From the sequence record PV874203.1: a DNA stretch of 64,000 nucleotides; one strand, given 5' to 3'. The DNA comes from a phage. The notes below the pieces were generated by a model. That model saw only the letters and a list, made by a program, of their open reading frames with translations. It did no database searches and had not been told where the DNA came from. Below are positions 17,863 through 34,215 of the stretch, piece after piece (position 1 is the first letter of the stretch; every line of letters starts with the position of its first letter). Made by a program: the position numbers and the translations under genes.

Positions 17863-18120
17863 CTAGATTAAATCGTAATACTGAATAATGTCAGAGAGTT
17901 TGAACTCTCGAATCTCATCTTTCTCTACATCAATTGCTGTCATAATCCAACAAGGTTTGCCACCGTTATGAAAACGGGAGCTAGCAACGGAGGTTCGGAG
18001 TGGAATAACGGACCGGTCAGCAACCTCGCCTCTCCAATTGCGATAGCGAAAGCGAAGCACTTGTTGCGTAGATTTTTGATCATCACTCATTTCCTTTTTT
18101 GAATTGTTTTCTTGCATCAT
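17863..18120 (-). CDS. hypothetical protein
   Basis: 85-aa ORF, first gene of the minus-strand block. Confidence 0.4.
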   Translation of the reverse strand: MMQENNSKKEMSDDQKSTQQVLRFRYRNWRGEVADRSVIPLRTSVASSRFHNGGKPCWIMTAIDVEKDEIREFKLSDIIQYYDLI

Positions 18121-18629
18121 TGGTATTCCCTAGCCATCAGATCTTCCTTAGCTTTAAGGTAGGCGTTATGTGCTTCTATTGGTGTGTTGAAACTACCTAT
18201 ATGTTTCCTTTTACCTCTGAAGGTAATAGCGGCTACATAAGGATTACTCTTACTGGTCTTGTTGATAGTAACACCTTTCAATCCTGTTGAGAGGTTATCA
18301 ACTCTAGGATTACTCTTATTTAAATTCTGAAGAGATCCTTCTGCTATTCTAAGATTTTGAATAGTGTTGTTTGTCTTATTCTCATCGATATGATCCAGGC
18401 TATCTGGATATGTTCCATAAATGAGGAACCACGCCAGCCTATGAGCGAGCCAAGGCTTCCCATCAAATTGTATCCTCACATATCCATCATTACCTAGTGT
18501 CCCAGCCAAAGAACCTTTTGAGGCTTTTCCTCCTCTTCTCACTTTCCAAAAGAAGTGACCTGTGTCTGCATTATAGTCTAACACTTCATGGAGATTGGCT
18601 AGTCTTTTTAAACTGTTTTCGATCTTCAT
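18117..18629 (-). CDS. HNH homing endonuclease with AP2-type DNA-binding domain
   Basis: DHIDENKTNNTIQNLR (HNH_3) plus GVTINKTSKSNPYVAAITFRGKRKHIGSFNTPIEAHNAYL (AP2-like); start trimmed to an internal ATG to avoid a 155-nt overlap. Confidence 0.65.
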   Translation of the reverse strand: MKIENSLKRLANLHEVLDYNADTGHFFWKVRRGGKASKGSLAGTLGNDGYVRIQFDGKPWLAHRLAWFLIYGTYPDSLDHIDENKTNNTIQNLRIAEGSLQNLNKSNPRVDNLSTGLKGVTINKTSKSNPYVAAITFRGKRKHIGSFNTPIEAHNAYLKAKEDLMAREYQ

Positions 18630-18993
18630 TTTCCTTCTTTGTTTTAATCTTATGACAAGGGTCTTTACACAGAACCTGAAAACCTTCTTTCTCACACAGA
18701 GCACGAGAGATGATTTCATCCCAAGTTGCTTCATGGTCAAGAGGAACTATAGGTTCTATGTGGTCAATAGCCATATCCTTTACAGGGTGGTCAGAACCAC
18801 ACATGGCACACTTAAAGTGCATTGCCAGTCTGCCTGTCTTTGGATTAATCTTCTGCTCTGTCTTGGCGTCTGCTAGTGCATCGAACATGGGCTTCCACTT
18901 TCTAGTCAGAGAACGAATCCCTGACTTGATAAAAGAGTTGTAACGAGCTTCAGTCCACATTCCAGAGCATCTAGTCTTCTCAGCCTTCGCCAT
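18586..18993 (-). CDS. HNH endonuclease
   Basis: CAMCGSDHPVKDMAIDHIEPIVP...LCKDPCHKIK fits the HNH zinc-finger nuclease pattern. Confidence 0.55.
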   Translation of the reverse strand: MAKAEKTRCSGMWTEARYNSFIKSGIRSLTRKWKPMFDALADAKTEQKINPKTGRLAMHFKCAMCGSDHPVKDMAIDHIEPIVPLDHEATWDEIISRALCEKEGFQVLCKDPCHKIKTKKENEDRKQFKKTSQSP

Positions 18994-19171
18994 AACCTAC
19001 ACTCATATCATCTTCTTCCCATACACGTTTATCCACTCGGTGTGATACTTTTTCACGTTTTTCTTTAATATAGCGGTTGCCTAATTCGTGGCTATATTTA
19101 ATACGCTGCTCTTTACGAGATTCACGGTTGGAGGAGTTTTCATCATATGAACGATAATCAAATTTACCCAT
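18980..19171 (-). CDS. hypothetical protein
   Basis: 63-aa charged ORF in a tight gene array. Confidence 0.3.
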   Translation of the reverse strand: MGKFDYRSYDENSSNRESRKEQRIKYSHELGNRYIKEKREKVSHRVDKRVWEEDDMSVGYGEG

Positions 19172-19194
19172 TATAATATCCTTATTACCAAGAT

Positions 19195-19704
19195 TTATTT
19201 GTGACGATGAAAGCCTAAGTGTAGGTCTTCTCTCTTTATTCTTAGGGCTTCTTCAGCCTCTTCTTTAGTTGCATAATACCCTAGATGGATAGATTTCCCA
19301 GACACTCCAATAATAGCTCTCCACTTATTAGCTCTTTTATGGAAAGAGACTCCCTTGATTCCGGAAGTACAGTTTATAGAGATCTTTCTGTTCCACTGAT
19401 TCTGACTTAAAGTGGCTTCTCTTAGATTACACCACTTGTTATTAGAAGGGTCCCCATCTATGTGATCTACACAATCGGGAATGTAACCTTCCATATAAAG
19501 GAATGCAAGTCTATGAGATTGGTACAATATTCGATTTACCTTGATGCAGTGGTATTTATGTTTTCCATAAAAACATCCAGCCACATCTCCAACATTCTTC
19601 CTACCTTTCTTAACTGTCCAAGTAAACTGACCAGTATTCGGGTCATACTTGAGAAGTCTTTTTAACTCTTCTCTATCCAAGATTACCATTCCTTGTTTAA
19701 CCAT
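19195..19704 (-). CDS. HNH homing endonuclease with AP2-type domain
   Basis: DHIDGDPSNNKWCNLREAT (HNH_3) and GVSFHKRANKWRAIIGVSGKSIHLGYYATKEEAEEA (AP2-like). Confidence 0.7.
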   Translation of the reverse strand: MVKQGMVILDREELKRLLKYDPNTGQFTWTVKKGRKNVGDVAGCFYGKHKYHCIKVNRILYQSHRLAFLYMEGYIPDCVDHIDGDPSNNKWCNLREATLSQNQWNRKISINCTSGIKGVSFHKRANKWRAIIGVSGKSIHLGYYATKEEAEEALRIKREDLHLGFHRHK

Positions 19705-32919: not shown

Positions 32920-32927
32920 GTAAATCC

Positions 32928-33107
32928 TTATGCAGTCAGGAGGTGAAGAATGAATGGGATAACAACAGCTACGACAACCATAATGGTTGATGCTGTTTGA
33001 ATCTCACCTTTCTTGTCAGGGGTTTCTTCAATAAGCTTACCAGAAGCCCAATAAATACCACCACCAATAAAGATAGCCCAAATACCCCATACGATTGCTG
33101 ATAACAT
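32928..33107 (-). CDS. small membrane protein with two predicted TM helices (holin-like, speculative)
   Basis: Not in ORF track (under 60 aa): MLSAIVWGIWAIFIGGGIYWASGKLIEETPDKKGEIQTASTIMVVVAVVIPFILHLLTA; RBS AAGGA upstream. Confidence 0.35.
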   Translation of the reverse strand: MLSAIVWGIWAIFIGGGIYWASGKLIEETPDKKGEIQTASTIMVVVAVVIPFILHLLTA

Positions 33108-33124
33108 ATATCTATATCCTTATA

Positions 33125-33166
33125 AAGAGAAAACCCCGTCTATTCCTAGACAGGGCTTGAGTTTTT
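33125..33166 (-). terminator. hairpin terminator
   Basis: CCCCGTCTA-TTCC-TAGACAGGG hairpin flanked by A/T runs, just after the Dps-like gene. Confidence 0.5.
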
Positions 33167-33728
33167 AGTAAGACACATCACCACTTGAGTGGGACATGTT
33201 GCTCTTGACGAAGTAGCAATACTTGCCGAGACCTTCATTGATTTCTTGAAGCATACTCTGATCAACTGGATAGGTGGCTAAATCACCATCAAACTCATCC
33301 ATCTTCTCAATAATACACATCAAGGTCATGCACATATCAGAGAGCATACCGTCCATATCTAGGTCAGCATTACCTTCTGAGAACCAAGCATGAGAAAGAT
33401 AATTGGCTGCTGTAGCGTCCACTTTAACACAGTGGTAACGCATACGTTCAGCAATACGATCTCCTACTTGTCGTGCGTAATCTTCCAGCTCATCAAACAT
33501 ACCATGAACACCCTGAAATCCTGCACCAGAGACGTTCCAGTGGTAGTTTTTAGCTTTGATATGCAAGAGTTCCATGTTAGCTTGTAAGCAGCTCAGGATG
33601 TGTTCTAGGCTGTTTCCACTAATCATACCCTGCATAGTTTCAAGGCGAGAGATTGAAAGCTCAGATCGGTCTAACATGTTATATTCTGCACGACCGATTT
33701 CAGGTAAATCAAAGACATTCTTATGCAT
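33165..33728 (-). CDS. Dps-like ferritin-fold protein
   Basis: NYHWNVSGAGFQGVHGMFDELEDYARQVGDRIAERM matches the Dps signature (HWNVKG..F..H..FDE...D.IAER). Confidence 0.65.
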   Translation of the reverse strand: MHKNVFDLPEIGRAEYNMLDRSELSISRLETMQGMISGNSLEHILSCLQANMELLHIKAKNYHWNVSGAGFQGVHGMFDELEDYARQVGDRIAERMRYHCVKVDATAANYLSHAWFSEGNADLDMDGMLSDMCMTLMCIIEKMDEFDGDLATYPVDQSMLQEINEGLGKYCYFVKSNMSHSSGDVSY

Positions 33729-34215
33729 TATATTCCCTCCAAGTTTGATTAAGTAGAGCTTTTGACATCACTTGCTGAGAGACACCAAAACGTCTTGCAA
33801 GGGCAGAGCCTCCAAACTCTTTATCTCGAGGGATATAGACTCTCCTACAGTACTCTACATCTTCTAGAGTAAGTTTAGACTGTGGATTGTCTTCTCCAAA
33901 CCTCTGTACCATCAGACCTAATGATGATGCATGTTGAGAGTTTTCTCGGTGGGTACACCATTCAAGATTATCTTTATGATTGTTAAGTTTATTGCCATCC
34001 TTATGGTTGACACATGGAAGATTATCAGGGTTCGGTATGTACTTACTAGCAACCAGCCTGTGGACATAGAAATTCTTTAATCCTTCAGGAAAGTAAATAG
34101 TAACTCTGTAATAGGCACCATTAGTGTGGAGGGTTAAAAACCTTCCACTCTTTATAGTAAATACTCTACCATCTTCTGTTACATCAATCTTCCCTTCCAA
34201 TTCTTTTGGAATCAC
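33721..34215 (-). CDS. HNH homing endonuclease
   Basis: VNHKDGNKLNNHKDNLEWCTHRENS HNH_3 motif; C-terminal HTH-like region. Confidence 0.7.
   Translation of the reverse strand: MIPKELEGKIDVTEDGRVFTIKSGRFLTLHTNGAYYRVTIYFPEGLKNFYVHRLVASKYIPNPDNLPCVNHKDGNKLNNHKDNLEWCTHRENSQHASSLGLMVQRFGEDNPQSKLTLEDVEYCRRVYIPRDKEFGGSALARRFGVSQQVMSKALLNQTWREYNA

Follow-up and report, generated by a model that had tools for sequence, protein, structure and literature searches.

The window analysed here is a 64,000-nucleotide (nt) stretch of phage DNA (record PV874203.1). Its leftward replication/nucleotide-metabolism operon contains five HNH open reading frames (ORFs), all on the minus strand and labelled HNH#1 to HNH#5 (Table 1). 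HNH#4 lies in a predicted group I intron that interrupts the DNA polymerase gene within motif C, after the His codon and before Asp-Glu. HNH#1, HNH#3 and HNH#5 are putative free-standing homing genes at gene-gene junctions, and HNH#2 is, judged by its distribution, a core gene of the phage group.

Positions 17800–35000 matched 109 phage records, nearly all of them Escherichia phages of the phiEco32 group. Kuravirus genomes align to this query at ~92–93% identity across 78–85% of its length. The window is assigned to a phiEco32-like coliphage (Kuravirus, Gordonclarkvirinae). Genes switch strand at ~17.85 kb, from plus before this point to minus after it. DNA and protein comparisons with phages used a set of 50,697 phage records. 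Insertions were mapped by BLAST against two element-free references, phiEco32 (L001) and KM01 (L002).

Table 1. HNH genes and polymerase gene parts in the replication/nucleotide-metabolism operon
Feature	Coordinates	Strand	Evidence
HNH#1, HNH_3 with AP2-like C-terminus, 170 amino acids (aa)	18117–18629	-	HNH_3 35.2 bits, E 9.8e-9; PHROG 99, E 2.1e-52
HNH#2, phi32_30 homolog, putative zinc-finger HNH protein, 135 aa	18586–18993	-	PHROG 3106 'HNH endonuclease', E 8.6e-39
HNH#3, putative HNH-AP2 endonuclease	19195–19704	-	HNH_3 46.2 bits, E 3.4e-12; AP2 (PF00847), E 4.3e-7
DNA polymerase, predicted exon 2	26136–26288	-	PHROG DNA polymerase C-terminal, E 4.8e-12; phiEco32 alignment
Predicted group I intron, 607 nt	26289–26895	-	U.G at 5' splice site, terminal G, P10, covariation
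HNH#4, putative intron-encoded HNH endonuclease, 131 aa	26409–26804	-	HNH_3 45.1 bits, E 7.6e-12; zf-His_Me_endon, E 0.0012
DNA polymerase (family A), predicted exon 1	26896–28587	-	Pfam DNA_pol_A, E 1.1e-13; phiEco32/KM01 alignment
HNH#5, I-HmuI-like, 164 aa, GTG start	33721–34215	-	HNH_3 35.6 bits, E 7.1e-9; PHROG 59, E 6.5e-45

HNH genes of the replication operon

An initial annotation, made from the sequence alone, had listed five HNH ORFs in this block, and all five are present where it placed them. Its reading of them as HNH nucleases was borne out by profile searches, most directly for HNH#1, #3, #4 and #5. These four exceed the gathering score of Pfam HNH_3 (PF13392; 24.8 bits) and retain the catalytic His and Asn of that domain, with the motifs DHIDENKTNNTIQNL, DHIDGDPSNNKWCNL, NHKCKNRACCNTDHL and NHKDGNKLNNHKDNL. 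HNH#2 was recognised through PHROG 3106; none of the Pfam HNH models matched it at gathering level, the best being HNH_5 at E 0.036. PHROG families named HNH endonuclease match all five ORFs (E 8.6e-39 to 1.7e-68). In a scan of the whole window, HNH_3 was found in exactly 4 of the 112 ORFs. No further HNH-type PHROG member was found among the 112 ORFs (families were listed as the 25 most frequent, a depth at which a single GIY-YIG or LAGLIDADG gene could be missed), and therefore all HNH genes of the 64 kb lie within 18.1–34.2 kb.

HNH#1 and HNH#3 had been labelled HNH-AP2, a label that stands in part. The AP2 match of HNH#3 scores 30.6 bits, below the 33.3-bit cut-off. HNH#1 has no direct match to Pfam AP2 and earns the label only as a paralog of HNH#3, with which it aligns through the AP2-like C-terminal region at 36% full-length identity. 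PF00847 is carried by the homologs P0005, P0006 and P0010. PDB matches of HNH#3 include I-HmuI (1u3e, E 1.9e-4) and the plant AP2 protein WRI1 (E 0.0063).

The load of HNH genes had been called unusually high. HNH ORFs were counted with a single detection pipeline in the homologous block of eight relatives. The window has 5, PAS59 has 6, XT18 has 5, SU7 has 4, YF01 has 3, and phiEco32, KM01, PE006 and SU10 have 2 each. The paper describing YF01 counts four HNH domains in the YF01 genome (PMC9965538). Because the relatives hold 2–6 HNH ORFs and that paper counts four, the load is not unusual, and the window is better described as the high end of a generally HNH-rich group. At least 10 distinct sites in the block are occupied in one relative or another. 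Several of them are clustered in the last 2 kb of the operon, near the core HNH gene.

All five ORFs had also been taken for accessory insertions. Synteny with relatives upholds this for HNH#1, #3, #4 and #5: phiEco32 and KM01 lack them, with the break exactly at a gene junction or within the polymerase gene. These four are presence/absence polymorphisms with precise boundaries; HNH#2 is present throughout the group.

The polymerase intron and its relatives

HNH#4 had been placed inside the polymerase gene, correctly, although the intron around it was missed. The BLAST gap against phiEco32 and KM01 spans 26289–26896, and its boundaries are base-precise in the alignments. At 26896 exon 1 closes with ...AUG CAU (His), and exon 2 opens GAU GAG (Asp-Glu) at 26288. 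The intron thus splits the His/Asp-Glu codons of polymerase motif C, whose Asp we take to be catalytic. The phiEco32 polymerase is one uninterrupted ORF of 614 aa. Joining the window exons in silico gives a 614-aa product that is colinear with it, the motif HDE included. The predicted ligated junction is ...GAUAUGCAU/GAUGAGGGU, i.e. ...AUGCAU/GAUGAG. The intron begins AAACUUCAUUGUGCAU, and its last base is the G at 26289. Read without splicing, exon 1 meets a stop codon 10 codons into the intron.

The flanks of HNH#4 contain the helices of a group I ribozyme. The 5' segment (26805–26895) holds P1, P3, P4, P5 and the 5' strand of P6. The 3' segment (26289–26415) holds the 3' strand of P6, P7, P7.1, P7.2, P3', P8, P9 and the terminal G. 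In P1, exon AUGCAU pairs with intron GUGCAU over 6 base pairs, the last being the U.G at the splice site, a pair conserved in 14/14 homologs. In P10, exon 2 contributes its opening six bases, GAUGAG, which pair with UUCAUU (97.5% of cells paired). P7.1 together with P7.2 is typical of group I subgroup IA. The HNH#4 ORF is placed in the P6 loop; it comes with a Shine-Dalgarno sequence of its own (AGGAGG) and reaches its stop codon inside the 3' strand of P6. A single-sequence PDB search with HNH#4 gave no match.

The structure (P1, P3–P6, P7, P7.1, P7.2, P8, P9 and P10) was mapped on ORF-deleted versions of 14 distinct copies. For the covariation count, P3/P7 was written as a pseudoknot, and controls were made by sliding the 3' partners one to three columns. 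P8, which MAFFT misaligned and whose loop lengths differ, was left out of this count and was counted by an anchored script. Across the 14 distinct homologs, 95.3% of cells were paired, against 33–42% in the slid controls. Nine pairs changed on both sides (0–3 in controls), and the covariation score was 0.201 (at most 0.076 in controls). Three compensatory pairs fall in P3 and three in P9, and P7 is invariant (GACUAU/AUAGUC). P8 occurs as six different sequences, every one fully paired. The first P1 pair is A-U in the Kuravirus-like copies (AUGCAU with GUGCAU) and G-C in the T7-like copies (GUGCAU with GUGCAC); the guide therefore follows the host codon, Met versus Val.

Rfam Intron_gpI (RF00028) matches the 3' part of the intron, including AGACUA and GAUAUAGUCC, with E 8e-5 and 27.2 bits. 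This match was obtained with an E-value threshold on a 761-nt stretch; the whole window searched at gathering gave a tRNA only. From the boundaries and the predicted fold, the interruption is read as a group I intron and the polymerase gene as neither broken nor split. Splicing of the intron RNA is what we infer from this sequence evidence.

All Kuravirus-like copies of the intron, unlike the T7-like ones, close with an AUG that is in frame with exon 2 (26289–26291 in the window). Because the intron ends in this in-frame AUG, a 51-aa ORF (26136–26291) is called by ORF finders and annotators. The GenBank records of PE006, SU7 and PAS59 have two polymerase coding sequences (CDSs) and an endonuclease annotated. 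SU7 has a predicted ribosome-binding site before the 51-aa 'DNA polymerase-like protein' ORF. The annotated records of intron carriers that were examined show two polymerase ORFs or hypothetical proteins. The polymerase of the window and of at least 11 related GenBank records should read as one spliced gene.

Intron DNA matched 11 Kuravirus-like records at 85–99% identity. About 50 other records matched at 65–67%; these are mostly from T7-like phages and include Vibrio phage Vp_R1. A pattern scan of IMG/VR added sixteen further intron copies, T7-like contigs among them. Every copy sits between ...GCAU and GAUGAR (His/Asp-Glu, motif C), that of Vp_R1 (Grimontviridae) included. The intron ORF of T7-like phage 13a aligns colinearly with HNH#4 at 59% identity. 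In 13a the host polymerase CDS is annotated as joined, and the ORF within the intron is also 131 aa.

On the introns of the T7-like phages PhiI and W31, a passage of PMC3428280 refers to Bonocora and Shub (2004), the title of which calls the intron self-splicing. According to the same passage, the gene 5 intron of PhiI, W31 and 13a encodes the HNH endonuclease I-TslI; the window intron occupies the same motif C insertion site. It also shares with the T7-like polymerase introns the P1, P3–P9, P7.1 and P7.2 helices and an ORF in the P6 loop. Unlike those introns, it is hosted by a Kuravirus polymerase with separately encoded exonuclease subunits, and its guide is adapted to AUGCAU rather than GUGCAU. 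Its L5 is longer, its P7.2 is shorter, and its 3' end is an AUG in frame with exon 2. Literature searches returned no relevant account of an intron in Kuravirus, phiEco32-like phages, SU7 or ECBP2, and the intron appears to be unannotated and undescribed in Kuravirus-like phages.

One T7-like copy, in contig L017 (IMGVR_UViG_3300045988_126022, ~11000–11450), is a 419-nt intron with a degenerate 41-aa remnant of the HNH ORF. It is an example of endonuclease decay with the ribozyme kept. Two candidates from the pattern scan, L018 and L023, were dropped as not being members of this intron family. In L018 (IMGVR_UViG_3300043478_000035, ~5400–5460), the P4/J4-5/P5 sequence of this family (GGTGAACTCGGTGAAACCC...GGGCAATACCGAG) recurs in other surroundings. 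The GATATAGTC core does not occur within 700 nt of that sequence, and L018 may contain another group I intron.

A variable segment lies just downstream of the polymerase gene, at 25571–26130 on the minus strand. It holds two small ORFs that lack a nuclease domain. They are found in phiEco32 and KM01 (72–98% identity) and are absent from PE006, PAS59, SU7 and XT18.

Free-standing and core HNH genes

The segment carrying HNH#1 that is absent from phiEco32 and KM01 is 18122–18604, with base-precise limits. It lies between the core HNH#2 gene and the phi32_29 homolog (17863–18120). HNH#1 DNA has no match in the 50,697 phage records, and its best phage protein match is 44% identical. The metagenomic Kuravirus contigs L028 and L029 have homologs of 90–95% identity at this site, likewise with a 44-nt overlap. 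In the more distant contig L030 the site holds a 58% homolog, and the HNH#3 site is occupied too, by an HNH-AP2 gene. The beginning of HNH#1 (MKIENSLKR) resembles that of the downstream gene (MMQENNSKK), as if copied from it and then diverged. The neighbouring phi32_29 homolog, on the minus strand, has a borderline match to Pfam WYL (21.7 bits against a cut-off of 21.8, E 2.1e-4).

The HNH#3 insertion is 19199–19681, also base-precise, between the 5'-3' exonuclease gene and the phi32_32 homolog. Of three candidate starts, ATG 19704, ATG 19689 and TTG 19680, the TTG is probably the one used; its counterpart is the annotated start of the PAS59 ortholog. PAS59 is the only carrier of HNH#3 among the phage records searched. 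The HNH#5 insertion, 33730–34215, is again base-precise and lies between the phi32_68 homolog and a Dps-like gene. HNH#5 has weak matches to NUMOD4 and to a C-terminal helix-turn-helix. Among phage records its carriers are XT18, XT73 and ManiMatter_Bas94 only, at 96–99% identity.

The HNH_3 module of these genes (DH..N..NN..NL) is like that of I-HmuI and I-HmuII, the HNH nicking endonucleases of phages SPO1 and SP82 (PDB 1u3e). The weak NUMOD4 and helix-turn-helix matches of HNH#5 fit the modular build of the I-HmuI type. Unlike I-HmuI and I-HmuII, which are intron-encoded, HNH#1, #3 and #5 are free-standing, and HNH#1 and #3 bear a putative AP2-like DNA-binding module. The free-standing homing endonucleases of T-even phages, the Seg and Mob families, spread by intron-less homing. 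Like Seg and Mob genes, HNH#1, #3 and #5 lie between conserved genes, are polymorphic among close relatives and have carriers altered beside the insertion. They differ from Seg, which is GIY-YIG, in being HNH_3 genes, and the phage group differs from T-even phages.

HNH#2 is of another kind. A tblastn search found it in 99 records at 60% identity or more, as a single copy in each among the matches listed. Identity is ~95% in Kuravirus and 78–80% in SU7/ECBP2-type phages, and HNH#2 is not among the BLAST gaps against phiEco32 and KM01. Because it is single-copy across the group and its identity tracks genome divergence, HNH#2 is a vertically inherited core gene of Kuravirus-like phages and not a mobile insertion, which is how it had been listed.

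Its identity as a nuclease was assessed from residues, profiles and structure. In 30 homologs, Cys62, Cys65, His78, Cys109 and His114 are invariant and Asp77 is nearly so; five homologs match PF01844. A PDB profile search was dominated by spurious C2H2 zinc-finger matches and included an HNH endonuclease (5h0m, E 0.0017); a single-sequence PDB search gave nothing relevant. The AlphaFold model has a predicted local distance difference test score (pLDDT) of 93. Its best PDB neighbour in Foldseek is the Gme HNH nickase (4h9d, probability 0.95), and the HNH domains of Cap5 are also among the top neighbours, with weak scores. With moderate confidence, HNH#2 is a divergent zinc-finger HNH nuclease.

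Homologs of HNH#2 are labelled 'terminase small subunit' in KM01, PAS59, ES17, IMEP8 and other records. This label is probably a propagated error; the YF01 paper points out the mis-annotation and rejects the terminase assignment (PMC9965538). A packaging role for HNH#2 was considered here and rejected, as the gene lies in the replication operon with no terminase linkage. HNH#2 resembles HK97 gp74, a packaging-associated protein for which a passage of PMC9965538 cites Kala et al. (2014), in being a small conserved zinc-finger HNH protein. It differs from the gp74 type in lying in the replication operon and not beside terminase genes. As a guess, HNH#2 may function in replication or recombination or as a nuclease acting on host DNA.

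Proposed homing and alternative explanations

HNH#1, #3 and #5 each overlap the gene upstream of them at its 3' end, where the final codons depart from those of element-free alleles. The recoded 3' ends are 18606–18632 (HNH#1), 19683–19700 (HNH#3) and 34216–34275 (HNH#5). For HNH#1 and HNH#5, carriers have the junction variant in common and non-carriers lack it. For HNH#3 a single carrier was compared, the divergent contig L030; it shares the ending KEW-stop, as against KSW-stop in element-free genomes. The recoded codons of L030 create AAGGAG just upstream of the endonuclease start codon. The recoded ends probably supply the ribosome-binding site or start codon of the endonuclease gene, and they probably also remove its cleavage site from the carrier genome.

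Identity profiles differ among the elements. Between the window and PAS59, the HNH#3 cassette is 94.8% identical (92–99% along the profile) and its flanks are 62–86%, about 78% overall. The ribozyme segments of the intron are 97–100% identical to those of PAS59 and SU7, the exons ~77% and the intron ORF 73–88%. These sharp discontinuities point to lateral transfer of HNH#3 and of the intron. HNH#1 compared with contig L028 has the reverse pattern, with 83–92% in the cassette and 97–99% in the flanks. The initial annotation had proposed that each insertion site marks a recombination junction. The profiles of HNH#3 and the intron clearly bear this out; it applies to HNH#1 in a different sense and is not visible for HNH#5 in comparison with XT18.

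We propose, with a probability of about 0.85, that the operon carries a mobile group I intron in the polymerase gene, three free-standing HNH homing genes and one core HNH protein. The intron RNA would fold and self-splice, restoring the 614-aa polymerase. HNH#4 would nick or cut intron-less polymerase alleles of co-infecting relatives, and repair would copy the intron in (homing). HNH#1, #3 and #5, at gene-gene junctions, would probably spread by intron-less homing. The recoded upstream gene ends would serve both as the translation start for the cassette and as immunity of the carrier to its own endonuclease. We infer the endonuclease activity, the targets and the homing of these elements from their sequences and distribution.

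Several observations weigh against parts of this proposal. Of the helices, P6 is the least well supported: 75.5% of its cells are paired, and one position is a constant mismatch. The Rfam score of the intron is below the gathering score of 50, a shortfall due in part to the 396-nt ORF in L6, which splits the core beyond the reach of a single local match. The in-frame terminal AUG would allow separate translation of the 51-aa tail. The HNH fold of HNH#2 depends on weak structural scores (Foldseek E 0.2). The greater divergence of the HNH#1 cassette than of its flanks could mean relaxed selection on a fixed element and not recent homing. A fine-scale identity profile of HNH#5 against XT18 has no discontinuity.

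It is improbable that the variable HNH genes are not selfish homing elements but phage weapons or defences kept by selection, for example by degrading competitor or host DNA, with patchiness due to accessory-gene flux. All the ORFs are intact with catalytic residues, as such a role would have it, and HNH#1 is kept at one site across contigs with cassette identities of 58–95%. A passage of PMC3428280 also cites Goodrich-Blair and Shub (1996) for the exclusion of competitors' markers by homing endonucleases. Marker exclusion is a by-product of homing, so this role does not exclude it, and the precise junctions, the carrier-linked recoding and the cassette-limited identity between diverged genomes are classical homing signatures. 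A similarly low probability is given to the idea that some elements are inactive, decaying relics that persist through slow deletion. The fast divergence of the HNH#1 cassette relative to its flanks would fit, and the degenerate ORF of L017 shows that decay happens in the intron family; yet HNH#1, #3, #4 and #5 are full length, with the HNH_3 motif intact, and colinear with their homologs. Least likely is a genuinely split polymerase, with polypeptides of 573 and 51 aa translated separately and cooperating, a free-standing HNH gene and no RNA splicing: the terminal AUG, the paired polymerase CDSs of PE006, SU7 and PAS59, the predicted SU7 ribosome-binding site and the low Rfam score would suit it, but the break cuts motif C between its His and Asp-Glu codons, the flanking 210 nt hold a complete group I core with compensatory changes, the U.G pair and terminal G stand exactly at the boundaries, T7-like homologs do without the terminal AUG, unspliced exon 1 soon runs into a stop, and the intron family is cited as self-splicing in the passage of PMC3428280 noted above.

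Mobile intron and homing genes can also be placed in a wider, tentative reading, at slightly less than even odds. One intron lineage would have crossed at least three families (Autographiviridae; Gordonclarkvirinae, with Kuravirus and Suseptimavirus; Grimontviridae) by homing into the universally conserved His/Asp-Glu codons of PolA motif C. Its guide would have re-adapted to each host exon, and the intron would have gone unrecognised in Kuravirus-like phages. In the same reading, the recoded upstream 3' ends of the free-standing cassettes would combine a translation start region with self-immunity.

Both kinds of element are well known, the mobile group I intron with an HNH gene inside a phage polymerase gene and the free-standing homing endonuclease gene, and current understanding of homing endonucleases is unchanged by these findings. 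The presence of the T7-like intron lineage in Kuravirus-like and Grimontviridae polymerases as well is mildly new. With at least 10 homing-endonuclease sites, occupied in differing combinations across ~100 sequenced relatives, the block forms a compact natural panel on which homing, co-conversion and marker exclusion could be measured beyond the T-even model, in a group of podoviruses. In phage therapy, Kuraviruses are directed against E. coli, and such elements would be expected to bias inheritance in cocktail co-infections.

The thyX gene of the window (31975–32631, minus strand) is at most 75.5% identical to any thyX in the phage records. It is 65–68% identical to that of the five relatives examined, though its flanks are 92–97% identical. 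In XT18, SU7 and PAS59, an HNH gene lies directly upstream of thyX. The window thyX may be an exchanged or endonuclease-resistant allele. The sole gathering-threshold Rfam match of the window is a tRNA gene at 53402–53474 on the minus strand (71.9 bits).

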